From positions 2,428 through 66,427 of the forward strand of contig JBGQIB010000001.1 of NCBI GenBank assembly GCA_041498295.1: DNA of 64,000 nt. Direction: 5' to 3'. Below, piece by piece: positions 25 through 40,509 of this stretch. The notes under the pieces were generated by a model, which worked only from the letters and a program-made list of their open reading frames with translations, was not told the DNA's origin and made no database searches. This DNA comes from a bacterium (GTDB taxonomy: Bacteria > Myxococcota_A > UBA9160 > SZUA-336). Numbering within the stretch: the first letter of the stretch is position 1; the number at the start of each line of letters is the position of its first letter. The translations under genes and the position numbers were made by a program.

Positions 25-1695
25 GTGACTGCAAAGCTGAAGGGCGCCGCGGCGAACGACGAGCTCGAGGAGCGCCTCGAGGTCGAGCTCGAATGCAGCG
101 AATGCGGCGCGAACTTCGTCGCGGGCGTTTGGGATCACTCGTTCCGCTGCACCTACTGCGGCTCGGTGCTGGCCTGCACGCGGGCGCTCGGCGAGGAGGT
201 GTTCGCGGTCTCCGACGGTGGCTCGAGCCCCTCCGACGCCCTCGCGCTCGTGATCCGCAACGAGACCGAGGGCTACCGCAACATGCTGGTCGGACGCGCG
301 AAGGGCGAGAACGAGGGCGCGGGCGAGATCTCGGCAGCGGCGATCGATGTGCAGGTCGAGGCGCTGCGCGCGAAGCTCGAACGAGAGCTCGTACTCATCG
401 AGGCCGGCGACTTCCTCGTGCCGTACGAGCTGCACGAGCGCACGGTGTTCCAGGGCATCCTGGGCCGGCGCGGCGCCGCGAAGGAGGCGTTCGTGCAGAG
501 CCTCCGCACCGAGGACGTCCAGCGCCGCTACGACCCCGCGCTCTACAACCTGCGCGACCGCGGCCTGAAGCTGCGCTTCGCGCGGGTCGCGCTGCTGCGA
601 CAAGCACACCTGGCGCGCGTCGGGGAGCGCGCCCTCGAAGCGGTCGGCGGGCGCGCGGAAGACGACGATCCCGCCGACCGCACGCGCGTGCGGGTCGACC
701 CGGAGCTCGAGATCATCGGCCGCCTGGAGGGTGTCTGCGCCGAGCGGCGGCTGCGCGTCTGGAAGCAGATGGGCTTCGCGCGCATTCAGCGCGGCGCCGG
801 GCTCGAGGACCATCTGATCGATCACCAGTTCGGGACGATCGCCGGTCGGCTCGAGCCCGAGGAGACCGAGGTCTACCGCGCGCTCGCGCCGCGCCGGCTC
901 GACGAGGTGCTGACGAAGCCGGTGCTGCGCGCGATCGCGTCCGAGTGCCCGAACTGTGGCGTCGAGCTCCAGCTCTCGCCGCGCGCGAAGCTCGCGTTCT
1001 GCGCGACCTGCGCGACCGCGATTCACGTCTCGGCAGACGGGCTGGCCGCCGTCGACTACGAGCTCGCGGCGACGCCGGAGCGCGACGGAGCCGACGCATT
1101 CATCGGCTATCCATTCTGGGCCTTCCCTGCGCGCATACTCGCCGGCGGCCGCGAGTTCCACCGGCTCTGGGATTGGCTCGAGCAAGTGAGTCCACAGCCC
1201 GCGGCGGTGCGCTACCGCGAGACTGATCCCGCGGAGGCGCGCCTGTTCGTGCCCGCGCGCGAGGTCTTCGGCACGCGCGAGCTCGACGATGCCTTCGCCG
1301 CGCTCGCGGCGGTCGCCACCTGGCGCCAACCCGTCACGCAAGTCACTCGTGCGCAGCCGAGCGACGGCGTGCGCCTGCTCGACGTCGAGCTCGAGCCGGA
1401 GCGAGCGGCGCCACTCGCCAAGTTCGCGCTCGTCGCGCTGCACGATCGCCAGAGCACGCGCGCATTGAACGGGCTGTCGTTCAAGACGTGGGTCGCGGAC
1501 GCGCGGCTCTCGCTCGGCGTGCCCCGCCTCGTCGTGTTGCCGCTGCCGCTGCACGCGGACCAGTGGCTGCCCTTGGGTCGCGCGGCGCAGTTCGATCTGC
1601 GCAATGCACCGGTGTATCCGAGGCCGGTGGCGCGCGGGGTGCTCGAGGACTCGGGCCAGCTTGCGCGGCGCTCGAAGCCGTTCTCGCTCCGCTGA
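25..1695 (+). CDS. Double zinc-ribbon protein (two CxxC...CxxC modules), YdjG-like, first gene of a Zn-ribbon/SPFH operon. GTG start at 25; upstream 24 nt are in-frame with no stop, so the gene may be 5'-partial.
   Basis: ORF track. Motifs CSECGANF...CTYCG (aa 24-46) and CPNCGVEL...CATCATA (aa ~313-333). A GAAGGAG RBS precedes the next gene, so co-operonic with downstream genes. Confidence 0.6.
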   Translation: MTAKLKGAAANDELEERLEVELECSECGANFVAGVWDHSFRCTYCGSVLACTRALGEEVFAVSDGGSSPSDALALVIRNETEGYRNMLVGRAKGENEGAGEISAAAIDVQVEALRAKLERELVLIEAGDFLVPYELHERTVFQGILGRRGAAKEAFVQSLRTEDVQRRYDPALYNLRDRGLKLRFARVALLRQAHLARVGERALEAVGGRAEDDDPADRTRVRVDPELEIIGRLEGVCAERRLRVWKQMGFARIQRGAGLEDHLIDHQFGTIAGRLEPEETEVYRALAPRRLDEVLTKPVLRAIASECPNCGVELQLSPRAKLAFCATCATAIHVSADGLAAVDYELAATPERDGADAFIGYPFWAFPARILAGGREFHRLWDWLEQVSPQPAAVRYRETDPAEARLFVPAREVFGTRELDDAFAALAAVATWRQPVTQVTRAQPSDGVRLLDVELEPERAAPLAKFALVALHDRQSTRALNGLSFKTWVADARLSLGVPRLVVLPLPLHADQWLPLGRAAQFDLRNAPVYPRPVARGVLEDSGQLARRSKPFSLR

Positions 1696-1785: not shown

Positions 1786-2274
1786 ATGGCCAAGCTACGA
1801 GACACGCTGCGCGCGGAGCGCGGCAGCCTCGAACGCCTGATCGCACGCGTGCCGGGCTTCCGCGGCTACCTGGGTCGCGAGCAGCGGCGCGAGGCCGACA
1901 AGCTCCTGCGCGATCACGGCGCAACGCGCCTGGAGCGCGTCGTGCATGACTTGAGCGGCGTGATCGCGAAGGCTTCGCTCGAGCAGATCGGCGAGCTCCA
2001 GGAGCTCGTCACCCAGGTCGAGAAGCTGCGCGCGGAGCTCCGCTTCGCAGACCGCGGTTACTCCGGCTTTTTTGACGAGGTGAAGCTCGACGGCGACGCG
2101 GCGCTCGACGCGGTGTACGCGCAGGACGAGCGCATCGTCCTGCAAGTGGAGGAGGTCGCGGCGCAAGCGGCCGAGGTGGACTTTTCGCCGGCGAAGCTGC
2201 GCGGCAGCGTCAAACGGCTCGGGCTCGCGCTCGCCGATCGGCGCAACGCGATCCTCGGCCTGGGATCGAGGTAG
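1786..2274 (+). CDS. Hypothetical 162-aa coiled-coil-like protein, middle gene of the Zn-ribbon/SPFH operon.
   Basis: ATG at 1786 preceded by GAAGGAG; stop 4 nt before gene 3 start. No recognisable family from sequence. Confidence 0.5.
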   Translation: MAKLRDTLRAERGSLERLIARVPGFRGYLGREQRREADKLLRDHGATRLERVVHDLSGVIAKASLEQIGELQELVTQVEKLRAELRFADRGYSGFFDEVKLDGDAALDAVYAQDERIVLQVEEVAAQAAEVDFSPAKLRGSVKRLGLALADRRNAILGLGSR

Positions 2275-2276
2275 TC

Positions 2277-3314
2277 ATGTCGCAGTTCGTCGAAGTCATC
2301 GAGTGCCTCGACCGTTCAGCCGAGACGCTCGTCTCGCGCTTTCCCGAGCAGGGCTCGGCGGAGATCAAGCTCGGGGCGCAGCTCGTCGTGCGCGACAGCC
2401 AGGCCGCGATCTTCGTGCGCGACGGCCGCGCGCTCGACACCTTTGGCGCGGGCCGACACACGCTCACGACCCTGAACGTGCCGCTCCTCTCGAAGGCGCT
2501 GTCGCTGCCGACCGGGTTCAAGAGCCCCTTCCGCGCCGAGGTGTACTTCCTCAACCTGCGCAGCTTCGTGAACCAGAAGTGGGGCACGATGGAGCCGATC
2601 CTGTTCCGCGACAGCGAGCTCGACATGGTTCGGCTGCGCGCCTTCGGGATCTACGCGTACCGCATTTCGAACCCGCAGGTGTTCCTGCACTCGCTCGTCG
2701 GCACGGTGAGTGAGTTCACGACCGAGGCCGTGGCCGACTTCTTCCGCGGGCTCATCGTGACTCAGACGGCGGACTTTCTCGGCGCGCACCTGCAGAGCGT
2801 GCTCGACCTGGCGCAGCATTACGTCGCGCTCTCGGCCGGCATCCAGGCGAAGGTGCTCGCCGACTTCGAGAAGTACGGCGTGACGATCTCGGACTTCAAG
2901 ATCCTGTCGATCTCGCCGCCGGACCACGTGCAGGAGATGATCGACAAGCGCGGCGGCATGGCGGCCGTCGGCTCGCTCGATTCGTTCGTTCGCTACCAAG
3001 CGGCGAACGCCCTCGAGAAGTCGGCTGCGAGCGGAGCCGGAGGAGGCGGCCTCGCGGCCGCGGGCGTCGGCGCCGGCGCGGGCCTCGGACTCGGCGCGGG
3101 CATGGCGGGCATCGTGAGCCAGGCGCTCGGCGCCAAGACGGCCGCGAGTCACTGTGCCGCCTGCGGCGCGGGCGTCGCGAGCGAGGCGAATTTCTGCTCG
3201 AGCTGCGGTGCGAACCAACGTCCCGCGGCGCTGACCTGCCCGAGCTGCAGTGCGCAGAACGCCTCCGCCTCGCGCTTCTGCTCGAGCTGCGGGACTCCGC
3301 TCAACCCCTCCTGA
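2277..3314 (+). CDS. SPFH/band-7 (stomatin-prohibitin-flotillin) domain protein with C-terminal tandem zinc ribbons (COG4260 / YdjI-like).
   Basis: N-terminal SPFH-like region. Gly/Ala-rich linker. C-terminus CAACGAGVASEANFCSSCG and CPSCSAQNASASRFCSSCG (two CxxC-N10-12-CxxC ribbons). Confidence 0.8.
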   Translation: MSQFVEVIECLDRSAETLVSRFPEQGSAEIKLGAQLVVRDSQAAIFVRDGRALDTFGAGRHTLTTLNVPLLSKALSLPTGFKSPFRAEVYFLNLRSFVNQKWGTMEPILFRDSELDMVRLRAFGIYAYRISNPQVFLHSLVGTVSEFTTEAVADFFRGLIVTQTADFLGAHLQSVLDLAQHYVALSAGIQAKVLADFEKYGVTISDFKILSISPPDHVQEMIDKRGGMAAVGSLDSFVRYQAANALEKSAASGAGGGGLAAAGVGAGAGLGLGAGMAGIVSQALGAKTAASHCAACGAGVASEANFCSSCGANQRPAALTCPSCSAQNASASRFCSSCGTPLNPS

Positions 3315-3327
3315 CGACGGATCGCGA

Positions 3328-4128
3328 CTAACTCGCGAAGAGTTCGGAGAGCGTCGTCAGAGCTCGCGGCATGCGCGGGCCGTACCAGGACAAGAGCTCG
3401 CCTTCCAAGATGTGGATGCGGCCGCTGCGTGCGGCCGGGCAGTCGAGCTCGAGCAGCTCGCGGCGGTCGAACTCTCCGAAGCGGTAGGGCTCCGTCGGGA
3501 GCAGGAGGACGTCCGGCGCGGCGGCTTCGAGAGCGCTCCGCTCGATGCGTGGGTAGCGGGCGCCGCCGGCGACGGCGAACGCGTTCTGCGCGCCCGCGCA
3601 CTCGAGCAAGTCACTCGCGAACGTGTCTCCGCCGACGACCATGAGCGGGTCGCGCCAGACGAGCGCCACCGCGCGCGGTCGCGGTGCCACGCGCTTCGCG
3701 AGCGCCGCGAGGCGTGACTCGACTTCGACGCCGATCGCGTCGGCCTCGCCGGCGCGCGCGACGATGCGCCCGAGCGCGCGCATTTCGCGCACCGCCTCGG
3801 CGACGCCGCGCGCGTAAGTCACGAAGACGCGCAGGCCGGCGGCCTCGAGGCGCTCCACGTCGCGCGCGCGATTCTCTTCCTTGTTCGCGATCACGAGGTC
3901 GGGACGCAGCTCGGCGATCGCCCGTACGTCCGGATTCTTCGTGCCGCCGACGCGCGCCACGCGCACGACCTGCTCCGCGGGGTGTACACAGAACTCGGTC
4001 ACTCCGACGATCGCGTCACCCGCGCCGAGCGCGAACAACGTCTCGGTCCATGAGGGCACCAGCGAGACGATCCGCCGAGGCGGCGACGAGAACTCGTGCT
4101 CGCGTCCCAGCGAGTCGCTTTCGAGCAA
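3328..4128 (-). CDS. BtuF/FecB-like (class III periplasmic-binding-fold) cobalamin/metal-binding protein. No obvious signal peptide.
   Basis: RRIVSLVPSWTETLFALGAGDAIVGVTEFC matches the N-terminal core of BtuF-type binding proteins. 32 nt downstream of the ankyrin gene on the same strand. Confidence 0.65.
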   Translation of the reverse strand: MLESDSLGREHEFSSPPRRIVSLVPSWTETLFALGAGDAIVGVTEFCVHPAEQVVRVARVGGTKNPDVRAIAELRPDLVIANKEENRARDVERLEAAGLRVFVTYARGVAEAVREMRALGRIVARAGEADAIGVEVESRLAALAKRVAPRPRAVALVWRDPLMVVGGDTFASDLLECAGAQNAFAVAGGARYPRIERSALEAAAPDVLLLPTEPYRFGEFDRRELLELDCPAARSGRIHILEGELLSWYGPRMPRALTTLSELFAS

Positions 4129-4160
4129 GGCGTCTCTTTACGGCTCGCCGAGCCGCGGCG

Positions 4161-6833
4161 CTAGTGGCGAAGACCGGTATCGAAGAGCAGGTGCACGATA
4201 TCGGGGTGACCGTGCGAGGTCGCTAGCGTAGCGGCGGACAGGCCGTCGGCGGTGCGCGCGTTCGGGTCTGCGCCGCGCTGCAGGAGCAACTGCACGATGT
4301 CGCTGTGGCCAGCGGCGGACGCGTGCAGCAGCGGGGTCCAGCCTTGATCGTCCCGCGCGTCGGCTTGCGCGCCGGCAGCGAGCAGCGCTCGCAGGTACGA
4401 GGTTTGTCCGTCGCGAGCGGCCTTCGCGAGCGCTTGGTTGTTCTCACGCCGGCGGCGCTCGCGGTCGCCGCCGCCCGGCAGCACCGACGCCATCATCAGC
4501 GCCGTGCGTCCATCCTGTGATTTCACGTTCGGGTCGGCGCCCTTCTCGAGCAGCAGGAGCGCAATCGGGCCATGGCCCGCGGCCGACGCGAGCAACAGCG
4601 GCGTCCAGCCGGCGCGATCGCGCACGTTCGGGTTGGCGCCCTTTTCGAGCAAGACCCGAGCGGCGTCGAGATGGCCCTCGCGCACGGCGCGGATCAGGGA
4701 GTTCTGTCCGTCCTCGGCGCTCGCTTCGAGCTTGGCGCCGGCCGCGAGCAGCGCGAGCAGAGCGCGCACCCGGCCCTTCCACGCGGCGTACATCAGCGCG
4801 GTCTGGCCCGTCGCGGAGCGCGCGTCGACCTCCGCGCCGCCGGCCAGCAGCGCGTTCACGACGATGGTGCGGCCCTTCATCGAGGCAAGCATCAGCGGCG
4901 TTTGGCCGCCGCGGGCGCGGCTGTTCGCGTCGGCGCCCGCCTTCAGCAGGGCGAGCGCGACGTCGGTGTGACCCTCTTGAGAGGCGAGCATGAGCGCGGA
5001 CATGCCCTTGCGATCACGCGCGTTCGGGTCGGCGCCCGCGTGCAGCAGCGAGTCGACGGAGTCGAGCTGACCCATCTGTGCGGCGCGAGTCAGTGCGATG
5101 CGCCCGGGCTCGCCGCGCACCCCGAGGCTCGGGTCGTGCTCGACGAGTAGCTCGACGATGCGCACGTGTCCCTCGCGCGCGGCGCGTGCCAGCGCGCTCT
5201 GCCCGTCGCCGGCGCCGATGCGCGGGTCCGCGCCGCCCTCGAGCAGGATGCGGGTGATCGGCTCGTAGCCGTTCGAGGCAGCGACCTGCAGCGGCGTCGT
5301 GCCGACGTTCGTCCTTGCGTTCACGTCCGCGCCTGCGCGCACGAGCATGCGCACGACGTCGGTGCGACCCTCATTTGCGGCGCGGAACAGCGCTGTCTGG
5401 CCCGCGTTGGTGGTGTCGTCGAGGCTGGCGCCCGCGGCGATCAGCGCGCGAACTGACTCGAGCTCGCCGGCGCGCGCGGCCTCGCCGAGTGCCGACGAAC
5501 CGCTGCGGCTGTGCGCGTCGACGTCGACGCCCTTCTCGACCATCGCGCTCAGCAGCTTCTCGTCACCCTTCTCCGCGGCATCGACGAACAAGTCGTTCGC
5601 GACGCGCAGCTCGGGCAGGAGAAATGCCGGATCGGCGCGCGACAGATCGGCGCCCGCGCGCCGCAGCTCGTCGACGACGTCGCGATGGCCCTCGCGCGCG
5701 GCCACCTCGAGTGGCGTCTCGCCCGACGCGTCGGACGCGTCGATCGACGCACCGCTCTCGAGCAGCTTGCGCACGGTGTCACCGCGCCCCTTTTCGGCGG
5801 CCAACAGCAGGGCGGTCTTTCCCTCGCTGGAGCGCGCGTTCACGTCCGCGCCCTTCAGGAGGAGCGCGGAGATCAACGCGCCCGTCGGCGTGCGCGCGGA
5901 GCCTGCGTCCCCGCCCGCGCCGACGTCGGCAAGAGAGGGCTCGTCGGGGCGCAGGCTCGCGAGCAGGCTCACGACGTCGTCGCGCTTCTCGGCCTTCGCA
6001 TAGTCGAGCGCGCTGCGCCCGGCGGCGTCGACGGCGTCGACCTTCGCACCGTCGGCAAGCAGCGCACCGATGGTGTATGTGCGGCCGGCGGAAGCCGCGT
6101 ACATCAAGGCGGTCTCGCCGTCGCGCGCGCGCGCGTCGGCCGTCGCCCCGGCGCGGATCAGGGCGTCTACGACGCCGGTGCGGCCTTTGATGGCCGCGAG
6201 CATGACGGGCGTCTGTCCGAGCGCCGTGGTCCCGTTCGGATCCGCCTTCTGTTGCAACAGCTCGCGCACGATCGCGAGCCGGCCTTCAGCGGCGGCGAAG
6301 TGAAGCGCGCTCAGGCCCGCGGCGTTGCGCGCTGTGACGCTCGCGCCGGCGTCGAGCAGGAGCTTGACGATCGGCGCGTAACCGCGCGCGCTCGCCTGCA
6401 TGAGCGGCGTGAAGCCCTGTTCGTCCGCGAGATCCACGCGCGCGTGGTGCTTGAGCAAGAGCGCAGCGACTTCGCGGGAGCCCTGTGCGCTCGCGTGCAG
6501 GAGCGCGGTCCAGCCGCTCGTGTCGCGCGCGTCTGCCACGGCGCCGCGCGCCAGAAAGAGATCGACGAGCTCGTCAGATCCGAGCTGCGCGCCGATCGCG
6601 AGCGGTGTCGCACCGTCGGCGGCCGTGCACTCGAGCGACGCGCCCGCGGCGAGCGCTGCGCTCGCCGCGTCGACATCTCGCTCGCGGGTCGCGGCGAGCA
6701 ACCGCGCGTCGTTTCCGTGAGCGCTCTCGACCGCGTCGGCCGAGCTCGTGTGCGGTTTGCGGACACCTTCAGGAGAAACTGTGGCCCCGGTGGCTGCCGC
6801 CAGTAGGAGCGCGGAGGCGAGCAGCCGGCGCAC
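4161..6833 (-). CDS. Secreted ankyrin-repeat protein, 890 aa, ~24 ANK repeats. GTG start with AGAGAGGA RBS.
   Basis: N-terminal signal peptide MRRLLASALLLAAATGATV. Dozens of G-TPL--A---GH--IV--LL--GA repeats. 15 nt downstream of the PEP-CTERM gene. Confidence 0.85.
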   Translation of the reverse strand: MRRLLASALLLAAATGATVSPEGVRKPHTSSADAVESAHGNDARLLAATRERDVDAASAALAAGASLECTAADGATPLAIGAQLGSDELVDLFLARGAVADARDTSGWTALLHASAQGSREVAALLLKHHARVDLADEQGFTPLMQASARGYAPIVKLLLDAGASVTARNAAGLSALHFAAAEGRLAIVRELLQQKADPNGTTALGQTPVMLAAIKGRTGVVDALIRAGATADARARDGETALMYAASAGRTYTIGALLADGAKVDAVDAAGRSALDYAKAEKRDDVVSLLASLRPDEPSLADVGAGGDAGSARTPTGALISALLLKGADVNARSSEGKTALLLAAEKGRGDTVRKLLESGASIDASDASGETPLEVAAREGHRDVVDELRRAGADLSRADPAFLLPELRVANDLFVDAAEKGDEKLLSAMVEKGVDVDAHSRSGSSALGEAARAGELESVRALIAAGASLDDTTNAGQTALFRAANEGRTDVVRMLVRAGADVNARTNVGTTPLQVAASNGYEPITRILLEGGADPRIGAGDGQSALARAAREGHVRIVELLVEHDPSLGVRGEPGRIALTRAAQMGQLDSVDSLLHAGADPNARDRKGMSALMLASQEGHTDVALALLKAGADANSRARGGQTPLMLASMKGRTIVVNALLAGGAEVDARSATGQTALMYAAWKGRVRALLALLAAGAKLEASAEDGQNSLIRAVREGHLDAARVLLEKGANPNVRDRAGWTPLLLASAAGHGPIALLLLEKGADPNVKSQDGRTALMMASVLPGGGDRERRRRENNQALAKAARDGQTSYLRALLAAGAQADARDDQGWTPLLHASAAGHSDIVQLLLQRGADPNARTADGLSAATLATSHGHPDIVHLLFDTGLRH

Positions 6834-6848
6834 GGTGATCCTCTCTTT

Positions 6849-7598
6849 TTAGGTATTTCGAACGCGCCGCCCGCTGAGCACAGCGAGCGCCGAGAAGCCG
6901 AGGAGCCATGCAATCGCGGGCTCTGGTACGGCGACGATGTTCGAAACACTCACGATGAAATCGTTGAAGCCGCCGTCGTTGCCGGTCTCGAAGGCGAGGA
7001 GATATTGATTCGTGAGAAACAGGCCGGGTGACTGGCCCGGGAACTTCAAGGTCGTCGTGCCGTTCCCTGCGAACACCTTGACCCGAACCTCGCCGCCGTT
7101 GAGGTCCGCTTCGGTGAACAGATACACAGGCGAGTCACTGTGCGCCGACGCGACCTTGGCGAAGAAGCCGAACGGGCCGTCGAAGCCCGACGCCTTCGCC
7201 TTCGGCGTGAGACCGCCGCGAATCGTGATCGAGCCGTCGTCGCTGAAGCTCACGCTCGCGACATCGTCCGGCGACATGCTGTCGGAGAGCAGGAACGCGT
7301 GGTTCCCCGAATCGTCGGCGGGGTACATGCCGAACCAGAGCGCGTCGGACCGCCCCGTGTAGTCGACCACGACGTTGGCGCTCATCGGCCCCGAGGCATT
7401 GTCCCAGAGGTCGATGTTGGCCGGCGCGCCGGCGTCGATCGCCGGGCCCGACACGACGAGGCCGTCGAGAATTTGCTGCAGGCTCGGAGCGGCCGGGGTC
7501 GGCTTGGGACACCGCGCTGGCTTGGTAATCAGATGTGCGCCCGCGGTTTGGGCGAACAGCACGAGACACACGAGTGCCGGGAGAACCCGCTTGATCAT
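6849..7598 (-). CDS. PEP-CTERM sorting-domain surface protein.
   Basis: Signal peptide MIKRVLPALVCLVLFAQTAGA. C-terminal VPEPAIAWLLGFSALAVLSGRRVRNT (PEP motif + TM + basic tail). Start trimmed to the internal ATG at residue 38 of the ORF. Confidence 0.75.
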   Translation of the reverse strand: MIKRVLPALVCLVLFAQTAGAHLITKPARCPKPTPAAPSLQQILDGLVVSGPAIDAGAPANIDLWDNASGPMSANVVVDYTGRSDALWFGMYPADDSGNHAFLLSDSMSPDDVASVSFSDDGSITIRGGLTPKAKASGFDGPFGFFAKVASAHSDSPVYLFTEADLNGGEVRVKVFAGNGTTTLKFPGQSPGLFLTNQYLLAFETGNDGGFNDFIVSVSNIVAVPEPAIAWLLGFSALAVLSGRRVRNT

Positions 7599-7645
7599 CG
7601 ATATTCGGCCCTGCCGGTCTCGAGTTCCTGACCGGTCTGTCAGCG

Positions 7646-7680
7646 TGGGGCATTCTAAGTGACGTGGGTGATGCCCCACA
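7646..7680. promoter_or_regulatory. Perfect 9-bp inverted repeat GTGGGGCAT-N17-ATGCCCCAC in the Nif3 / PEP-CTERM intergenic region. Candidate operator or RNA hairpin.
   Basis: Seen directly: gtggggcattctaagtgacgtgggtgatgccccac, about 50-80 nt upstream of the PEP-CTERM start codon. Confidence 0.3.
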
Positions 7681-7778
7681 AGCCATAAGTACCCACCGTT
7701 GTACCACAATTACGTTGCTTTCCGAGCCATTCCGTGACGCAAGACATGCGCATCGAGCTGCGAAGGTCGGGTACCACG

Positions 7779-8894
7779 TCAGGTTCTCCGGCTCCACGGA
7801 TCGGCGTCGAGATCGAGCAAGCCGGCGGTCTCGAGACCCTGCGCCGCAATCAGCGCGAGCAGCCGCTCGACCCCGGGCCGCTCCGTCGCGGCGTGGCCGG
7901 CATCGATCGACGCCAGGCCCGCGTCGAGCGCGCGGCGGGTCGCGTGATGCCGCAGATCGCCGGTGACGAAAACATCGGCTCCGGCTTCACGCGCCGCTCG
8001 GGCGAAGTCCTCGCCTGCGCCGGGAAGCACCGCGACGCGCCGAACCCGCTGCCCGGGATCGCCCGCGACCCGAGGCACGGGGCCCTGTAGCGCATCCGCG
8101 ACTCGATCCGAGAGCTCCGCGAGGGAGACTTCGCCCTCGATCCGTCCGATTAGCCCGGCTGGGCGCGCTTCGCCGCGCCGCTCGAACAGATCGAAAGCCG
8201 GTTCCTCGTACGGGTGCGCGCCGACGAGCGCGCGAACCGCCTCGGCCTCACGCGCGGGCGACACCAGAAACTCGAGCCGCACCTCGGGTTCGACCGACAG
8301 CTCGCCGCGCTTGCCCGCGCGCGGGGCGGCGCCTTCGCCCGCGAAGAACGTGCCCGTGCCCTCCGCGCGGAACGAGCAGTGCGTGTAGTTGCCGATGCGC
8401 GCGGCGCCGGCCCCGGCGACCGCGTCGAGCACCGCGTCGGCTGCAGCGCGCGGCACGAATGTGACGAGCTTCTTCGACGCCGCGCCGTAGAGCGGACCGA
8501 AACCCTCGACGTCGGCGAGCTGGAGCGCATCCGCGAGCGCGTCGGCCGTGCCTCCTGGGGCAACGTCGAAATTCGTGTGCACGACGCCGAGCGCGATTCC
8601 GGCGCGCATCAGGCGGAGCGCACGGCCTTCGGGCGTCCGCCCGGCAACGAGGCGCTGGGTCGGCTGAAACAGCAACGGGTGATACGCGACCAACAGATCG
8701 ACCGGATCCGACTCGAGCGCCGCGACGACGGCCTCCGTCACTTCGTGACAGACCGCGATCTTCCGCGCCGGCGCACTCGAATCACCGAGCACGAGCCCGA
8801 CCGGGTCCCACGCGGCGGCGCGTTCGAAGGGCGCGCGCGCGGCGAGCGCCGCAAGAATGTCCGAGATCGCACGAGCTCGACTCACGCGCGCCAT
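7779..8894 (-). CDS. Nif3-like dinuclear-metal-centre protein (YqfO / GTP cyclohydrolase 1 type 2 family).
   Basis: Length 371 aa. Typical N- and C-terminal Nif3 halves with an inserted PII-like domain (HTNFDVAPGGTADALA ... VTGDLRHH). Confidence 0.85.
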   Translation of the reverse strand: MARVSRARAISDILAALAARAPFERAAAWDPVGLVLGDSSAPARKIAVCHEVTEAVVAALESDPVDLLVAYHPLLFQPTQRLVAGRTPEGRALRLMRAGIALGVVHTNFDVAPGGTADALADALQLADVEGFGPLYGAASKKLVTFVPRAAADAVLDAVAGAGAARIGNYTHCSFRAEGTGTFFAGEGAAPRAGKRGELSVEPEVRLEFLVSPAREAEAVRALVGAHPYEEPAFDLFERRGEARPAGLIGRIEGEVSLAELSDRVADALQGPVPRVAGDPGQRVRRVAVLPGAGEDFARAAREAGADVFVTGDLRHHATRRALDAGLASIDAGHAATERPGVERLLALIAAQGLETAGLLDLDADPWSRRT

Positions 8895-8972: not shown

Positions 8973-9080
8973 CTACTCGCGTTCGAGCAGCACCGCGGCG
9001 AACCCGAAGATCACCGGCAGGAATAGGATGCCCAACGTGGCGGCGAACAGGTACATGAGATCGAACGAATTCGGCTGCAT
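8973..9080 (-). CDS. Unannotated small ORF: 35-aa hydrophobic single-TM peptide MQPNSFDLMYLFAATLGILFLPVIFGFAAVLLERE, 21 nt downstream of korB.
   Basis: ATG preceded by GAGGAG at -10. Below the ORF-track length cutoff. Codon usage GC3-rich like its neighbours. Confidence 0.4.
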   Translation of the reverse strand: MQPNSFDLMYLFAATLGILFLPVIFGFAAVLLERE

Positions 9081-13397: not shown

Positions 13398-13556
13398 CAT
13401 CGAGGTGACTCGCCGCCCGTGCGGCGGCCGGTGCCTCCTCGCGGGTACCCTTCTCGCTCGCGGACTCGCTGCGAAACCCACTCGTCGGCATCCGGCCTCC
13501 GCACGAGCTCCGCTTTCAGGATCCTGTGGCGCCGCGCGCGGTGACGCGAGCTCTCG
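13398..13556. repeat. Local repeat copy A, ~160 nt, beginning immediately after the thiolase stop with GTGACTCGCCGCCCGTGCGG.
   Basis: Shares >85% identical segments with 14344-14430 (direct, with a ~60-nt internal deletion) and 14505-14550 (inverted). Confidence 0.6.
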
Positions 13557-14273
13557 CGAGGAGGCCGGCCACGAGCAGGAGAACGACCCAGGAGAAGCTC
13601 GCGGGCTCAGGGATCGGTCGGCTCGAGAACGAGGTCACGTTGCCTCCGAGTGACCAGATGCCCAGCGTCTCGTTCGTGGCGAACATGTTGAACTGGGCCG
13701 AGGTCCACGGCGGCGTCCCGGGATTCACCTGCGATGGGAATGCGTCGGAATCGAGGGCGGCGGGGGTCAGGCCCAGGAGCAGATCCTGAAAGAAGAGGCT
13801 CGCGTGGATCCGGTCGGTCGCCAAGGCCGGCGTGTACCAGTACCGGTCACTCGCAAAGCTCAGAAAGTCGCGCACCTGGTCGGGTGGCGGCGGGGGCGCG
13901 GGCGGTGGACCGACGTCGGGTCCGGGCGGGATGTGCTCGTCGTTCCTGACGGTCAGCTGCGTGCCGTCGGTCCACGTGTGCGTCTCCGGCCCGCCGAAGC
14001 TCACCGTCATGGACTCGAGCGTATAGATTCCGAGCGACTCAGCCGCGCTGTCCGAGCAGCCCCCCCCGCACTGGTCGGGAACGCCCTCGTCGAAGACGAA
14101 TACACATCCCCATTCTGAACCGACGCGAACACCGGCGCCGGAGGCGCATCCTGGGTCGTCTCGACCGCGAGGGCGGTTCCGCCGAACGTGAATTCGACGC
14201 GTGCGGCCCGCGCGGCGGACGAGACACTGACTGCCGTCGCGAAGACGGATTCCCTCCGCCGCGATACTGGCAC
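13516..14273 (-). pseudogene. PEP-CTERM surface protein gene split by a +1/-2 frameshift at a C8 (G8 on the coding strand) homopolymer at 14060-14067. Possibly phase-variable.
   Basis: Upstream frame (GTG ~14273 to stop 14007) encodes signal peptide MPVSRRRESVFATAVSVSSAARAA plus a VEFTFGGTALAVETTQ motif. Downstream ORF 13516-14010 encodes paralogous TVSFGGPETHTWTDGTQ and C-terminal IPEPASFSWVVLLLVAGLLARAR. One extra G would fuse the frames. Confidence 0.5.
14060..14067. repeat. Homopolymeric C8/G8 tract inside the disrupted PEP-CTERM gene.
   Basis: cagcccccccgcactgg. Confidence 0.8.
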
Positions 14274-30182: not shown

Positions 30183-33100
30183 CTACCAGGTGTAGCGGAA
30201 GCGGAGCTCCGCCTGATCGCGGTTCAGCACGGGTGCGGCGCCGCGGCCGAGAACCGCGCTGTTGTATTGCTCGATCGACCCATACTGGGCGATCGGGAAG
30301 TACGCGCCCTGCGCGGTGGATACGTGACCGAAGAAGTTCGAATACCCGATGCTGGTCGAGAACGCGTCATTCCACCGGTACGAGAGACCCGTGAGTACGG
30401 CCGCCTGTTCCTCCAGCGGCCAGTACACCATCGACACGCGCGGCGCGAGCCGATCCTGGAAGTAGCCGGTGAAGAACGTGAGCACCATCTGGGTCGAGAA
30501 CGGACCCACCGAGGTCTGATACATCCCGTCGTTGTTGCGCCTGCCGCCGACGTAGTTCGGGAGGTAGCGCACGAACATCTGGAAGTTCAGGAAGAAGCTG
30601 CGGTTCGGGTTCAGGAAGTTGAAGAACGTCGGGCGGTCGACGGAGAGCGAGAGCACCATCTCGTCGGACTGCGACAGACCCGAGAACTCCTGAGTGTTCG
30701 CGAACAGCTTGCGCGCCATCCACGAGAACTCGACGCCCCAGCTCGTCTTCGTGACGTCCTCCGCGAAGTCGAGACCGAACCCGAACACGTTCTTCTTCTG
30801 GTAGCGCAAGGACACCTGGCGGCCGCCCTGCCACAGGAAGTCGCGGCGCCCGAAGCGACCGTCGCCGCCCGCCTTCTTGATCGGCAGTGTCTGGGTCGTG
30901 CCGCCGACGATTCCCGCGACCGTCTTGCAGAACACTGGTGAGCGCGGCGGCAGGCCGTTCGGGAACTTCGCCTTGAACTTCGCGCTGCCGGGCGCTTCGT
31001 CGAGCCGGTACGGATCGTACTGCGCCGCGTCCTGGAGGACGTCGCCGCGCAGGCCGCTGCCGCACAGGATGTTGTCATCCGTAATCGGGCCAGAGCTGTA
31101 GTCGTCGAGGCCGTCCCAGATCCCGTCCTTGTCCTGGTCGAGGTCGCTTATGCCATCGGCGTTGATATCGCGCGGCAGCTTCACAGTCACTTCGCTCCTT
31201 CCGAAGAGCTCTTCGCGCTGCGGCTTGGTCATCTGCACGTGGTGCTCTACCCCTGCGGAGTCGACGACGCTGACGATTTGGCCGGAGAAGAGCAGGCTCA
31301 GCTTCTTGAGATCCGCCTGCTGGAGGGCCGCGAGATTCACCTTGCGCGCTCCGATGGTGGTCGGCGGGAGGTTCGGGTCGTTCGGCTCGTCGACCTCCGC
31401 GACCGTGAAGCCGATCGGCAGGTCGATCACGAGCGGCAGCTTGGACTTTGTGTCCGTGGGATCGTGCAGGGTCGCGCTGACGTCGTAGAGACACTGCGCG
31501 GTCCTCTTGCACTCGACGTTCGGGTCGAAGGTCAGGAGGCGGGTGAGGGCCTCTTGCTTGTCGGCCGGGGCCACGATCAGAGCGTTGTCTCCCACGCGCC
31601 GCGCGGGCATGACCTCGAAGTCGACCTCGTCGTCTCGGAACACCATCTGGTTTCGCGTGAAGATGCCGTCCGGGCCAGAGATCGGGTCCCCGTGGGCTTG
31701 CTTCGCGGTGCTGCCGCTGCCCCAGTTCGAGAGCTCGGTGAGGCTCTCGGGTGGATCGAAGATGCGATCGAAGCCGATGATCTCGCCCGCGATCAGCAGG
31801 CGTTCGAAGTTCGCCGACGCGGTCTCGAGCGCCGTGCAGCCGTGGTTGAAGGGGGTGCTCGAGACGGCGGCATCGAGGGTGTTCATCCAGCGCCCGCAGT
31901 ACTCGCCGTCGATCTGAGAGTAGGACGTCGCTGCCCCGGTCTGGTTCTTGTCGATGAAGTTCCACTGGTTGAGCGGGCTCGAGAGATCGAACGGGTTGTT
32001 CGGGTCGTTCTCGAAGACGATGGCTCCGAACTTCTTCCTGGCCTCCGGGTCCACCTTCCACGGCATCGGCTCGACCCAGCCGTCGGCCTGCTTCGGGTCG
32101 TTCGGGTCGTTCTGGAACTCCGCGCGGCCGACCCGGCCCAAGTCGATCACTTGCTGGGGCGTGATGTCGAGGTAGTGGCCGCGCTCGATTTGTGCGGGGG
32201 GGAGCCCTGGAATCGGGATGAACACTACGGTGCCGTCGCGGCTGTAGTTGATCCCGGGCTCGTACACGAGCTGTCCCTTCGGGCCCACCCGCGTTCCGAC
32301 CAGGGCACCCGGCGAGACCGCCTTCAGGCCGGTGAACTCCTGCGTAACGACGCTGGCGTCGGCGTTCATCAGATCGATGCCACCGAACTGATCACCGGGG
32401 CGGCGCTTCAGGGACGCCAGGATCGCCGGGTCGAGCGCCCAGACTTGTGCCTGTGCCGAGCTGCAAGGGGATGCGTATGCCGCGCCGCAGCCGAGTAGAG
32501 CCGCCTGTTCGGGCAGGAGGTTGAGTCCGAGGTCCTGATCGAATGAGTCCTGACGCCCCTTCGGATTGACCGCCAGGAACTCGGTCTCCAGGAAGGAACC
32601 GAGCTGCTGCCCGACGTTGTCGTAACCGTTGGGCTGGGTGCGAATCGTGTCGGTGCCGTCGAGCACGAGGGCGCCGAGACCGCCCAGGCCACCGAGGATA
32701 TTGGAAATGAAGCCGAACGTACCCGGGTTGTTCAGGCGGTCGAAGGCGCAGTAGCCCTCGTCCTGGTCGAACGTGTAGGCGCAGATCGAGTGGAAGAGTG
32801 TCTGGTTTACGTTGTGCAGCGAGGCGATCGCCTCGGGAGCGCGCAGGTGCTGGCGGCCGTTCTCGGGATTATTGGGGTCGTTCGGGTCGTTGAACGGGTT
32901 GCCCCAGAGCAAGCAATGGCCACCGCTCGCGAAGGTGTCGTCGCCATCGCCCGGGATACCGTTCGGACCGACGGCCTGTCCTTTCGCGTTCTTGCGGATG
33001 GTGCACTGCCCGCCCGCGCGCGTGGCCGTCGAGAGCGGGGCGCCCGTGGAAAAATCCGCCGTTCGCTCGTACTGCTGTACCAAGTTGAGATAGAAGCCAT

Positions 33101-35543
33101 CATCCCAGCCCCAGAAGTCGGAGACCGCGAACGTGAAGCGATCCAAGCGACCCTCGAGGCGGGCGCCGTAGTCCCAGGTCGCCCAGCTGTTGTAGTCGTG
33201 GTTGGGCCGCTGTTCGCCGGCGACGCCGATGGCCGCGAGGCCTGACGCCATCGCGCCGAAGCTCTTCAGGCAGATCAAGTCGACGGCGCCGCCTTCGCCG
33301 CACTTGCCGAGGTCGGTGGGCGTGAATTTGTTGAAGATCCAAAGAAGCTCGAGACGCAGGTCCTCGATTGGACCTACCCGCATGAACATCTCGGGCGAGA
33401 TCGTGACGTCTGCCGCCCACTGACCGACGCGCTGCTCTTCGAGCGGACCGAACAGGCCGTTGCCGATGTCGAGCGGGTTGTTGCGGTCCTGGTTGCGGAA
33501 CAGCTCGGTCTTGCCCCAGATCACGATCAACTTGCCGACACGCGCGAACACCTGGCTGTCCGCCATCTCGAACTCGAGATAGCCCTCGGCGAACTCGTGC
33601 TCCTGCTGGCTCGCGCCGTGGTTCCACGCCAGCTCGTCCTCGTTGAATTTCAGGTCGAGCTGCGACACCACGGCCTTGTGAGTGGCATAGAAGTTGGCCG
33701 TGCCCGGCGCCTGGAAGTCGATCCCGTTGCCCTTCTGCCGCGGCCGCGCGGGAATCTGGAAGCCGTCGCTGTCGCTGTAGAGGAGGAGGTCCGTGGCGTC
33801 GAGCGGTTCGTTGGAGGCCTGCGCCGGGCGAGCGCGGATATCTGCCAAGAGACTCAGCACCTCGTACTGAACCTGCCTTGATTTGGTGGCGTTGACCTGG
33901 ATGCAGCGGCCGTCGCCGTTGACGCCGATGTTGGGTGTCGAGGTGAAGTTCGCGCGCGAGAGCGCGCCGCAGCCGGCGGCAGACGCTTGCGCGGTGATGT
34001 CGGCGCCATTGGTTGCCGTGCACTTCTTCGTCACCAGGTTGAACGTGCCGCCGATCCCGCCGGTTGAGGTCTGGCAGCCCTGTAGGGTCACGTAGTCAGG
34101 GTTGTACTCACCGTACAGCTCGACTGTCTTGGAGATGCTCGGGTTGTTCGCCGTCGGCACCGTGATCTGAGCCGTATCCGAGAACACGTGGATTCCGCTG
34201 TCGCTCACGTTGAATCGATCGGTCGGGATCGGCGCTGCGAGCGTGTAGCCCGCGGCCTGCCCGGTTGGGTTGTTCGCGACGAACGGCAGATCGTCCGCGG
34301 TGTCGCGAATGCCATCGGGCCCGATGAAATACGGATCCGACCTCTTCACCGTGATGGAAGGAACGATGATCTTATTCCCGTCCGCGTCGATAATCGTCGG
34401 CGCGCCGACGACGTCCGCGCTGAGATCATCCGCGACACCAGTCTCGTACTGTCCGAACCAGTTCAGGCCTCCGGCATTCGCGAAGTAGCCCTTCGGATTG
34501 ATCGGGGTGTTGATCGTGGCCAGGAACGGCGTAATCGCGCTCCCGATCTTGTTCGAGCCCCACTTCGCCGTGAGCAGCTGCGGGGACAGCGCCTTCGAGA
34601 AGATCGCGAAGCGGTTGGGATCGGGGCGGGTGCCGAGAAGCTCCGGGATGTTGGCGTCGAAGGTGGTCTGTGTCGTGCCGAGAATCGCGTCGGCCTCCGC
34701 GGTCGCCGCCTGCGCCGCGGCCTGGTCGCCGGCTTTCTGGGCCAGCGAGGCCTGGACGATCAACGTGCGCCGCAGCGACTCCTGCGTGATCGAGAGCGTA
34801 TTGCCTCCGATCAGGAGGTTCCGCAGGCGGTTGAACTCGCCTTCACCGATCGTCGGGCGCGCCGAGCTGAGCAGTGACTCGCGCGAGAGGCGCGAGAAGT
34901 CGCCGCTGCGAACCTCGATGAACTGAGGTAGACCCGGCTTCAGCGGGCCGTCGAGCGGTGTGCGCTGATTCAGGTTGCAGAAGGCCGCCAGCGGGAACGG
35001 GTTCTGGAAGATGCCCGGCGGGTTCTCGCACTCGCGGTAGCGCCGCCCCGGGTTGTACTCCTTCCGGGCGTCCGTGAGCGTTCCGGGAACGTAGATCTGT
35101 TTCAGCAAGCCGCCGAAGAACGGGGACGGGTTCTGGACGCCCGCCTGCAGGCTCGCGGGTTGGCGAACGGCTTTGCGCGAGGCGTCGCCGTACGAGTCCG
35201 CGGCGTTGAACAGGCCGCAGGCTCGCGTATAGATGCAGTCGTAGCTCGCGAGCACGCGCGTGAACATGAACATCGAGTCGAACGGCCCGAAGCCGTCCGG
35301 GAAGAGCGACAACTCGAACTCGACCGAGAGCACGTGCCGGAACTGCGAGAACGTGACGGAGTTTGCCGGCAGGTCTTCGCCAGTGAACAGCAAGCGCGCC
35401 TCGTAGAAGCCGTGAATCGAGAACTTCCGCTCTCCGGGCAGATCCCACTCGAACGCCTTCGCGCGGTTCGCCAGGCCGACGCCCGTGATCAGGATACCGA
35501 GGACCAGAGCAGCAAGTCTGCCCGCAGCTAGCCTTCCCCTCAT
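30183..35543 (-). CDS. Giant (1786-aa) outer-membrane protein. DUF1302/AupA-like N- and C-terminal beta-barrel segments flank a ~1400-aa Gly/Asp/Asn/Pro-rich insertion carrying thrombospondin-type-3-like DPNDPN calcium-binding motifs.
   Basis: Signal peptide. N-terminal FSIHGFYEARLLF. C-terminus ...AELRFRYTW (aromatic terminal residue). Motifs NDPNDPNNPENG, NDPNDPKQADGW, ENDPNNPFD, DQDKDGIWDGLDDY. Confidence 0.7.
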   Translation of the reverse strand: MRGRLAAGRLAALVLGILITGVGLANRAKAFEWDLPGERKFSIHGFYEARLLFTGEDLPANSVTFSQFRHVLSVEFELSLFPDGFGPFDSMFMFTRVLASYDCIYTRACGLFNAADSYGDASRKAVRQPASLQAGVQNPSPFFGGLLKQIYVPGTLTDARKEYNPGRRYRECENPPGIFQNPFPLAAFCNLNQRTPLDGPLKPGLPQFIEVRSGDFSRLSRESLLSSARPTIGEGEFNRLRNLLIGGNTLSITQESLRRTLIVQASLAQKAGDQAAAQAATAEADAILGTTQTTFDANIPELLGTRPDPNRFAIFSKALSPQLLTAKWGSNKIGSAITPFLATINTPINPKGYFANAGGLNWFGQYETGVADDLSADVVGAPTIIDADGNKIIVPSITVKRSDPYFIGPDGIRDTADDLPFVANNPTGQAAGYTLAAPIPTDRFNVSDSGIHVFSDTAQITVPTANNPSISKTVELYGEYNPDYVTLQGCQTSTGGIGGTFNLVTKKCTATNGADITAQASAAGCGALSRANFTSTPNIGVNGDGRCIQVNATKSRQVQYEVLSLLADIRARPAQASNEPLDATDLLLYSDSDGFQIPARPRQKGNGIDFQAPGTANFYATHKAVVSQLDLKFNEDELAWNHGASQQEHEFAEGYLEFEMADSQVFARVGKLIVIWGKTELFRNQDRNNPLDIGNGLFGPLEEQRVGQWAADVTISPEMFMRVGPIEDLRLELLWIFNKFTPTDLGKCGEGGAVDLICLKSFGAMASGLAAIGVAGEQRPNHDYNSWATWDYGARLEGRLDRFTFAVSDFWGWDDGFYLNLVQQYERTADFSTGAPLSTATRAGGQCTIRKNAKGQAVGPNGIPGDGDDTFASGGHCLLWGNPFNDPNDPNNPENGRQHLRAPEAIASLHNVNQTLFHSICAYTFDQDEGYCAFDRLNNPGTFGFISNILGGLGGLGALVLDGTDTIRTQPNGYDNVGQQLGSFLETEFLAVNPKGRQDSFDQDLGLNLLPEQAALLGCGAAYASPCSSAQAQVWALDPAILASLKRRPGDQFGGIDLMNADASVVTQEFTGLKAVSPGALVGTRVGPKGQLVYEPGINYSRDGTVVFIPIPGLPPAQIERGHYLDITPQQVIDLGRVGRAEFQNDPNDPKQADGWVEPMPWKVDPEARKKFGAIVFENDPNNPFDLSSPLNQWNFIDKNQTGAATSYSQIDGEYCGRWMNTLDAAVSSTPFNHGCTALETASANFERLLIAGEIIGFDRIFDPPESLTELSNWGSGSTAKQAHGDPISGPDGIFTRNQMVFRDDEVDFEVMPARRVGDNALIVAPADKQEALTRLLTFDPNVECKRTAQCLYDVSATLHDPTDTKSKLPLVIDLPIGFTVAEVDEPNDPNLPPTTIGARKVNLAALQQADLKKLSLLFSGQIVSVVDSAGVEHHVQMTKPQREELFGRSEVTVKLPRDINADGISDLDQDKDGIWDGLDDYSSGPITDDNILCGSGLRGDVLQDAAQYDPYRLDEAPGSAKFKAKFPNGLPPRSPVFCKTVAGIVGGTTQTLPIKKAGGDGRFGRRDFLWQGGRQVSLRYQKKNVFGFGLDFAEDVTKTSWGVEFSWMARKLFANTQEFSGLSQSDEMVLSLSVDRPTFFNFLNPNRSFFLNFQMFVRYLPNYVGGRRNNDGMYQTSVGPFSTQMVLTFFTGYFQDRLAPRVSMVYWPLEEQAAVLTGLSYRWNDAFSTSIGYSNFFGHVSTAQGAYFPIAQYGSIEQYNSAVLGRGAAPVLNRDQAELRFRYTW

Positions 35544-35611
35544 CGCATTCCCCTCTCTACCTTCCTTGCACTTGCGACCGCGGCGCTTCCCTCACACCGC
35601 GATTGCGACGT

Positions 35612-38788: not shown

Positions 38789-38790
38789 GT

Positions 38791-40245: not shown

Positions 40246-40509
40246 TCGTCCGAGCGTGCTCAATGCCCCTCCCCGTCGGGCCCCGAGCGCAACGCGCGCA
40301 GGTCCCTGAGCCGCAAATTTCCCGTCTCCCGGTTCAGTGCGTCGCGCAGAAAGCATGCCGCGGAGGTCCACGACCAGCGCCGACCGGTGGCCGGTTCTAC
40401 GACGAGCGCTGACCCAGTGTCAAGCTTCGGCGGAAATTCCGGCACCGATGTGCAGCAGACGCGCAATTCGGTGAGCCATTCGCAGCGACAGGTCGGGCCG
40501 GCAGATAGA

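Follow-up and report, generated by a model that had tools for sequence, protein, structure and literature searches.

Several described systems come close to parts of a three-gene locus of an uncultured Myxococcota bacterium, which we analyzed in a 64,000-nucleotide (nt) stretch of contig JBGQIB010000001.1 (assembly GCA_041498295.1), hereafter called the window. The first gene product has its counterpart in the PEP-CTERM/exosortase system (EpsH, XrtA; Haft et al. 2006, PMC1569441), and its mature domain is closest to the LecB lectins (PA-IIL, RS-IIL, CV-IIL, BclA) and to the DUF4114 domain of Myxococcus xanthus PilY1.1. DUF4114 has already been linked to PA-IIL-type calcium lectins: the domain of PilY1.1 has been proposed to mediate exopolysaccharide binding, that of PilY1.2 lacks one Asp, and an Acanthamoeba DUF4114 domain was shown to bind mannose (PMC9109919, PMC11934332). 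For the second product, an exported ankyrin-repeat (ANK) protein, a comparison is offered by Bd3460 of Bdellovibrio bacteriovorus, an exported ANK self-protection protein whose gene adjoins that of the exported protein it binds (PMC4686830). The third product shares the Peripla_BP_2 fold with the class III binding proteins BtuF, HmuT, ShuT and RhuT.

The three genes lie on the minus strand in the order PEP-CTERM gene (gene 1), ANK gene (gene 2) and binding-protein gene (gene 3), separated by 15 and 32 nt. The explanation that we favor, to which we give an even chance, is a composite operon in which a clade-specific pair of envelope genes was inserted upstream of an older gene for a cytoplasmic TroA-like protein in uncultured soil Myxococcota. 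What the analysis shows directly is the anatomy, the export signals (as read from the sequence), the assignment to folds and families, how the genes are distributed phylogenetically, and how the insertion came about; exosortase processing, glycan binding, an interaction of the ANK protein with a partner and co-transcription are what we infer from them.

The insertion history is best seen in three outgroup lineages, where a homologue of gene 3 (58-62% identity) lies directly 3' of a NIF3 gene, 6 nt away in locus L015, 14 nt in L016 and 38 nt in L097/L099. These lineages contain no ANK or PEP-CTERM gene at the locus, and their downstream genes differ. The adjacency of NIF3 and gene 3 without the envelope genes indicates that it is the older arrangement and that the envelope genes were inserted between the two. 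In the window, the NIF3 gene still stands upstream of gene 1 (Table 1). The linkage of gene 3 to genes 1 and 2 looks historical, a result of this insertion; the original partner of gene 3 would be NIF3, and the envelope pair would have brought or acquired a promoter of its own. The outgroup pairs of NIF3 and leaderless TroA-like genes occupy positions 5882-7819 (L015), 5880-7807 (L016) and 5862-7840 (L097) of their loci.

Within the clade, the complete order PEP-CTERM, ANK, binding protein was found in ten loci (L001-L006, L008, L009, L011 and L012). L008 and L010 represent a single contig, the contig of L013 ends inside the ANK gene (gene 1 and the start of the ANK gene are present), and L007 is fragmentary. 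The tight same-strand arrangement is preserved throughout, with spacers of 7-13 nt between the orthologues of genes 1 and 2 (about 10 nt in L003 if a TTG start is used) and of 11-36 nt between those of genes 2 and 3. The NIF3 gene was lost in L008 and replaced by a reverse-strand Rdx gene in L006 and L014, with the downstream genes retained. This Rdx (SelW-like) gene lies at 6759-6935 (-) in L006 and at about 3810-4100 (-) in L014, where it was not called as a gene and has a seeming in-frame TGA that may be a selenocysteine codon.

The gene 1 product carries both parts expected of the PEP-CTERM class (TIGR02595 / PF07589). Its N-terminus reads as a signal peptide by inspection of the sequence and its orthologues, which is how all signal peptides were called here, and its C-terminus reads VPEP-AIAWLLGFSALAVLSG-RRVR, with P225, E226, P227, R244 and R245 invariant across 42 homologues. 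The tail scores 16.8 bits with TIGR02595 against a cut-off of 16, i.e., at the threshold. The signal peptide, VPEP motif, hydrophobic helix and arginine cluster, as well as the origin from a soil or sediment bacterium, are shared with the system described by Haft et al. 2006 (PMC1569441). The original prediction of a PEP-CTERM surface protein is reasonable on these grounds together with the lectin-type fold described below, and the gene 1 product is a credible exosortase substrate as judged from its sequence. We propose that it is exported by Sec and that an exosortase encoded elsewhere then cleaves the PEP-CTERM signal, so that the mature domain would end up, released or attached, on the cell surface or within the exopolysaccharide layer.

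The mature domain itself was not matched by the Pfam family DUF4114 (PF13448) at E<=0.01. A profile search of the gene 1 family against 1.8 billion representatives returned 1472 relatives, mostly of about 250 amino acids (aa) with the same architecture, and full-length relatives (profile E 1e-36 to 1e-22) reach 29-39 bits on the homologous region against a DUF4114 cut-off of 27. Several of the relatives that pass also match PEP-CTERM. AlphaFold2, run on the 42-sequence alignment, gave a confident beta-sandwich (predicted local distance difference test, pLDDT, 86.7) of the LecB type, for which the top Foldseek probabilities are BclA, PA-IIL and CV-IIL. The best sequence match of the family profile in the PDB is LecB (E 0.018), aligned via the calcium loop. 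We take the ligands of the two-calcium sugar site of LecB to be E95, D99, D101, N103 and D104 plus the C-terminal carboxylate of Gly114. In the hhalign alignment, E204, D208, N212 and D213 of the gene 1 protein correspond to LecB E95, D99, N103 and D104, and the wider family retains DxD[FY]ND. The domain differs from LecB in being about 60 residues larger, with an N-terminal helix. A fold of this type makes glycan binding probable for the domain in principle, and we regard the gene 1 product as a likely divergent member of the known class of lectin-like exosortase cargo in which sugar binding is uncertain and the calcium site is degenerate. Its close homologues (n=49) all come from metagenomes or metagenome-assembled genomes (MAGs) labelled Myxococcota, and the GTDB set holds only five species-level genomes that carry the gene.

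The gene 2 product matches Ank_2 with E 1e-177 (577.8 bits, 14 stretches). It belongs to the ANK families PF12796 / PF00023, with 20 repeats in a clean 33-residue register and about 25-26 repeats in total; of the earlier description as a protein with a signal peptide and about 24 repeats, the signal peptide stands, on inspection and from the orthologues, and the count is revised. The repeats form four blocks (about aa 41-305, 322-405, 418-785 and 797-890), joined by short linkers without repeats (about residues 296-334, 399-414 and 771-790). A single-sequence AlphaFold2 model of low confidence (pLDDT 62, predicted template modeling score 0.36) has about 25 helix pairs and was used for this count and for the positions of the linkers only, never for the overall shape. 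The leader of the L006 orthologue reads MHRLLLSLLLVGSLAAAAVQA followed by AE, and classic AxA sites occur in L006 and L014. Export by Tat, which the MRR start might suggest, was rejected on account of the short n-region and of L006, which has MHR, no RR and the classic AxA site. The membrane-binding domain of eukaryotic ankyrins consists of 24 ANK repeats and binds its partners via the inner groove. The gene 2 product resembles it in forming a long solenoid with a similar number of ANK repeats; the eukaryotic domain is cytoplasmic, whereas the array of the window is exported and split into four blocks by low-confidence linkers.

The orthologues of the ANK protein (862-892 aa) are collinear over their entire length, have a fixed repeat number and are 59-84% identical to the window protein; judged from these sequences, purifying selection acts on the protein, whose architecture is fixed and whose evolution is slow. 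Identity among orthologues is about 0.80 at the repeat-specific residues of the concave face (positions 5, 9, 10, 13, 14 and 16) and about 0.63 at those of the convex face (positions 17, 18, 21, 22, 25, 29 and 30). Going by general ANK structure, the higher conservation of the concave face fits a conserved ligand or binding partner in the groove. We propose that the protein is exported by Sec as a protein-binding scaffold in the periplasm or at the surface, and that its concave groove would most plausibly hold or regulate the gene 1 product or other envelope proteins.

The open reading frame (ORF) of the ANK protein is unbroken in eight independent assemblies (L001, L003, L005, L006, L008, L009, L012 and L014), so that the check on its intactness proposed with the original prediction came out in its favor. 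It is fragmented only in L004 and L007, where neighboring housekeeping genes (thiolase, KorA) are fragmented as well. With orthologues collinear over their entire length, the ORF is not an assembly artifact. In L004 and L007 (ENA ERZ25039551 and ERZ25039520), the ANK gene, thiolase and KorA are split into short ORFs, most likely by indel errors of assembly rather than as true pseudogenes.

For the ANK protein, a host-interaction effector had been suggested, on the premise that large secreted ANK proteins are unusual in free-living bacteria. The premise does not survive a full-length homologue search, in which ANK proteins of 800-1500 aa are common; Chondromyces, Aquisphaera and Roseibium, all free-living, have large ones. 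A statistical enrichment of ANK repeats in symbionts and other host-associated bacteria is nonetheless on record, as are higher repeat numbers in intracellular ones (PMC3932732). The search is dominated by generic repeat proteins, did not return the orthologues and is uninformative on origin. A secreted effector against eukaryotic or bacterial prey, delivered by a type II or other route and with incidental neighbors, has in its favor this enrichment and the signal peptide of the protein. Many Myxococcota are, moreover, predators. We nevertheless consider this explanation quite improbable. All equivalogs of Dot/Icm type IV secretion system (T4SS) Ank effectors (NF043019-NF043029) remain below cut-off, the best being AnkY with 268 bits against 600, and these scores, which reflect repeat similarity only, led us to reject membership. 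The gene also has native composition and a fixed core-chromosome position among housekeeping genes, and it is under strong purifying selection, with 59-84% identity and a fixed repeat number, whereas effectors usually turn over fast. It comes from MAGs of soil and sediment, in which nothing points to association with a host. A place in the MZA / PDC-M72 anti-phage system was also rejected: MzaA scores 335.9 against a cut-off of 800, and the PADLOC matches (MzaA, PDC-M72A) cover the ANK repeats only. PADLOC found no match in the three proteins neighboring the ANK protein.

The third gene belongs with the TroA-like "helical backbone metal receptor" family NF038402 (202.3 bits against a cut-off of 30, model positions 1-219 of 219) and matches Peripla_BP_2 with E 6.7e-26. 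Its best PDB matches are RhuT (5gj3, 1.6e-19) and BtuF (1n2z, 2e-13), and its solved relatives RhuT, BhuT, BtuF, ShuT and HmuT (E 1e-19 to 1e-12) bind heme or B12. The identification as a BtuF-like protein had to be given up: the BtuF equivalog NF002894 reaches only 69.7 bits against a cut-off of 234, and the protein has no leader. No genes for a BtuCD-type or other ATP-binding cassette (ABC) transporter adjoin gene 3 in the window or the related loci, and neither Rfam nor tRNA scans found anything in the entire window, so that a cobalamin riboswitch is absent. The earlier statement that the third protein lacks a signal peptide was correct. The domain begins at residue 19-20, an upstream extension of the ORF is impossible, a leader is missing from all orthologues and outgroup homologues examined, and 101 of the 120 closest homologues have no room for one. 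Since the leader is absent in every homologue examined, the protein would be cytoplasmic, and a TroA-like ligand-binding protein of the cytoplasm is, on sequence grounds, its best description. It thus differs from the class III proteins in lacking a signal peptide, a lipobox and cognate permease and ATPase genes, and in belonging to a leaderless family (more than 7400 homologues at E<=1e-20) with the motif [FY]C[VIL]HP, which is present in 98 of the 120 closest homologues and reads FCVHP here, and with NIF3 as the ancestral neighbor.

This bears on the possibility that the three proteins form one functional module, in which the surface protein and the ANK scaffold capture a ligand such as heme, a corrinoid or a metal chelate for the TroA-like protein. 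The tight spacing of all three genes throughout the clade speaks for such a module, as do the position of the ANK gene directly upstream of gene 3 in every ANK locus with enough downstream sequence and the place of gene 3 in the heme/B12-type class. A PEP-CTERM exoprotein serving metal uptake is also on record: ZepA of Anabaena, a small Sec-exported, zinc-handling protein with a PEP-CTERM tail, is encoded among metal-handling genes and has been reported in Cyanobacteria, Proteobacteria, Nitrospirota and the PVC group (PMC10957091). Even so, a single module is improbable in our estimate. Because gene 3 and all its homologues examined are without an export signal, its product would reside in a different compartment from the products of genes 1 and 2; neither an ABC permease or ATPase gene, a TonB-dependent receptor nor a riboswitch is nearby; and gene 3 is older than genes 1 and 2 at the site, beside NIF3. 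ZepA itself, compared by description only, differs in its two domains (an Ig-like sandwich and a novel domain) and its His ligands, and Myxococcota are not among its reported groups (PMC10957091). Metal scavenging of the ZepA type was rejected for gene 1 because the described architecture differs.

Direct reading bore out three minus-strand genes with gaps of 15 and 32 nt and a ribosome-binding site before the ANK gene. The stop codon TAA of gene 1 (6851-6849) is followed by AAAGAGAGGATCACC and then by the GTG at 6833, with AGAGAGGA inside the 15-nt gap. Gene 3 starts with TTG in the window, where its orthologues have ATG. A terminator scan found neither a terminator-like site nor room for one in the two gaps. 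In all, the scan gave 4 matches against 2.8 expected, weak and mostly within coding sequence, and the sole match that touches a spacer (4116-4132) is on the opposite (+) strand. Upstream of gene 1, blocks conserved among eight aligned orthologous regions contain a promoter-like element, an inverted repeat and a direct repeat (Table 1). The inverted repeat CTGAC-N6-GTCAG is present in the window, L001, L003 and L008, imperfect in L009, and absent from L005, L006 and L012. The conserved blocks occur also in loci without NIF3, which suggests that the trio probably has its own promoter. They may represent an operator, a promoter and a leader structure, as far as their sequence indicates. A scan for consensus promoters gave no match, the stringency of the scan being above TTGTGG-N18-TAGAAT, and the blocks, including the inverted repeat, match no Rfam family. 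With a promoter brought or acquired by the envelope pair, transcripts of the pair probably now include gene 3, which would nevertheless stand outside the mechanism of the pair.

The comparison of GC content at third codon positions (GC3) that had been suggested gave 0.81, 0.87 and 0.88 for genes 1, 2 and 3, within the range of the other ORFs of the window (0.81-0.93). Horizontal acquisition of the trio was rejected, given this native GC3 and the absence of flanking mobile-element genes from the window and the related loci.

A number of observations weigh against the composite operon as a working envelope pair. No exosortase was found among the ORFs of the window, nor an exopolysaccharide locus, and the PEP-CTERM model score is at threshold. 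At the position of LecB D101, which bridges both calcium ions, the gene 1 protein has Gly210, variable across the clade, as reported for PilY1.2. The free C-terminal Gly is missing as well, the chain running on into the PEP-CTERM anchor, so that the two-calcium site is incomplete, and lectin activity may be lost in a loop without the D101 equivalent. The two genes also evolve at unequal rates. In the loci that carry the PEP-CTERM gene, identity to the window protein is 83-96% for thiolase and KorB, 77-90% for SPFH, 69-85% for the binding protein and 64-84% for the ANK protein (leaving aside the fragmented L004 and L007 and the truncated L013), compared with 43-71% for the PEP-CTERM protein (38% in the fragmentary L007). 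Gene 1 thus evolves much faster than gene 2 (43-71% vs 59-84%), which does not suggest tight co-evolution. The whole neighborhood of about 15 kb (thiolase, KorAB, SPFH) is syntenic across the clade, so that the preserved gene order by itself says little about function. L014 keeps the ANK gene and gene 3 and has no homologue of gene 1. It is the sister of L006 (their ANK proteins are 72% identical to each other and at most 64% to others; that of L014 is 59-60% identical to the window protein), so that the PEP-CTERM gene was lost in L014, and the ANK protein does not need an adjacent one. Finally, we inspected the wider DUF4114/PEP-CTERM family in 80 metagenomic loci (subset alignment A3), of which 39 have at least 1.5 kb downstream and 51 have flank on either side; an ANK gene was found in none of the 39 downstream and in none of the 51 on either side. 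The pairing is, for the loci examined, confined to one Myxococcota clade and not a general rule.

Much of this would equally be expected if the three genes were functionally unlinked and merely packed into a compact syntenic region. The collinearity of the entire 15 kb, the survival of the ANK gene without gene 1 in L014 and of gene 3 without either in the outgroups, and the absence of ANK partners from the wider-family loci all agree with it. We consider this explanation unlikely, while giving it serious weight. It does not account for the fact that genes 1 and 2 both encode exported proteins and are both restricted to the clade at this locus, that they are separated by 7-15 nt containing a ribosome-binding site in all 12 loci having both genes (L001-L006, L008-L013), or that the pair stays intact in lineages in which the upstream NIF3 gene was lost or replaced. 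Of the surface or matrix role originally deduced from coupling to an exosortase substrate, what remains is a reasonable role for gene 1, given the export signals of both genes and the lectin-type fold, and a possible one for gene 2; the coupling is not obligatory, as L014 demonstrates.

Within the composite operon, which we continue to favor, the pair could act in a more specific manner. The ANK solenoid could serve, in the periplasm or at the surface, as a docking platform by which the exosortase-sorted lectin-like protein, and perhaps other PEP-CTERM cargo, is captured, oriented or gated, a proposal that we regard as speculative and rather doubtful. For the envelope pair as such, Bd3460 is the closest mechanistic precedent, as the ANK protein of the window also has an export signal and its gene lies directly beside that of another exported protein. 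Bd3460 is a small ANK protein, and its partner is a peptidoglycan endopeptidase, in contrast to the lectin-like PEP-CTERM protein here. If true, docking would define a previously undescribed two-component surface or matrix module and, for the first time, connect ankyrin scaffolds functionally with the exosortase pathway.

Table 1. Positions of the three genes, their sequence features and the region upstream (window coordinates).
Feature	Position	Strand	Basis or remark
Gene 1, secreted PEP-CTERM protein, mature part divergent DUF4114 / LecB-type beta-sandwich	6849..7598	-
Gene 1, ORF	6849-7709	-	real start ATG 7598, from conserved N-termini of 42 homologues, giving 249 aa
Gene 1, predicted Sec signal peptide, aa 1-21, MIKRVLPALVCLVLFAQTAGA followed by HL	7536..7598	-	inspection; conserved in 42-sequence alignment
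Gene 1, LecB-type calcium loop E204-T-G-N-D208-G-G210-F-N212-D213	6960..6989	-	hhalign: residues 205-219 on LecB 96-110
Gene 1, PEP-CTERM sorting domain, aa 224-249: VPEP, hydrophobic helix, RRVR	6852..6929	-	TIGR02595
Spacer gene 1/gene 2, 15 nt, with gene 2 ribosome-binding site AAAGAGAGGA	6834..6848	-	read from sequence
Gene 2, exported ANK protein, 890 aa, GTG start	4161..6833	-
Gene 2, predicted Sec signal peptide, aa 1-17, MRRLLASALLLAAATGA followed by TVSP	6783..6833	-	kept in orthologues
Spacer gene 2/gene 3, 32 nt	4129..4160	-	between TAG 4163-4161 and TTG 4128
Gene 3, leaderless TroA-like binding protein (class III, heme/B12-type), 266 aa, TTG start	3328..4128	-
Inverted repeat (hairpin) CTGAC-N6-GTCAG, putative 5' leader of gene 1	7628..7643	-	upstream alignment
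Promoter-like element TTGTGG-N18-TAGAAT	7652..7681	-	in conserved blocks of eight aligned orthologous upstream regions
Direct repeat GGTAC-N7-GGTAC (GTAC-N8-GGTAC)	7689-7705	-	conserved upstream block
NIF3/DUF34 gene upstream of gene 1, ancestral immediate neighbor of gene 3	7779..8894	-	PF01784 2.4e-59; TIGR00486 152 bits

The rest of the window is of housekeeping character (KorAB, thiolase, several tRNA synthetases, arginine biosynthesis, DnaK/DnaJ, DprA, HslV), with some further genes of note. Just 3' of KorB lies a hydrophobic ORF of 35 aa, MQPNSFDLMYLFAATLGILFLPVIFGFAAVLLERE, at 8973-9080 (-). Nearly all related loci, including outgroups, have a 35-aa gene called there (37 aa in L004 and L007; uncalled in L008), and the L014 version reads MQPNAFHLMYMFAATCGVLFIPVIVGLAAVLLERE. 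Judging from this conservation, the ORF probably encodes a genuine small membrane protein connected with 2-oxoacid:ferredoxin oxidoreductase. A second PEP-CTERM-like tail, IPEPASFSWVVLLLVAGLLARAR, ends an ORF with a Pro-rich stretch at 13516-14010 (-). No signal peptide is recognizable at any of its in-frame starts and it has no Pfam or NCBIfam match; the ORF may represent an exosortase substrate that is degraded or has a misassigned start. An ORF of 1786 aa without a Pfam match at E<=1e-4 stands beside a 1058-aa MMPL-type transporter-like protein and a 526-aa protein with BNR/Asp-box and OmpA domains (30183-35543 (-) and 35612-40371 (-)), and the region 30183-40371 may be an envelope or export cluster. 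Two proteins without Pfam matches, one of 556 aa with several CxxC pairs (25-1695 (+)) and one of 162 aa (1786-2274 (+)), precede an SPFH/Band-7 zinc-ribbon gene (2277-3314). In all clade loci these three genes stay together, except in L003, which lacks them, and in the fragmentary L007.

In the searched literature, PEP-CTERM and ankyrin appear together in a single paper, whose context is unrelated, and the pairing is unreported and limited to one narrow lineage. It does not overturn current understanding: all three proteins belong to known families, and the analysis refines their annotation and adds modest hypotheses. The apparent "BtuF" link is explained by insertion into an older NIF3/TroA-like pair, which removes a misleading transport reading. 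A separate question is thereby raised, namely the role of a large leaderless and presumably cytoplasmic TroA-like family with a Cys-x-His motif beside NIF3, and a cytoplasmic "periplasmic binding protein" partnered with the dinuclear-metal protein NIF3 may be worth a study of its own. Most PEP-CTERM cargo and exported bacterial ANK proteins have no assigned function, and the fixed side-by-side pair in this clade provides a concrete, testable case for both.

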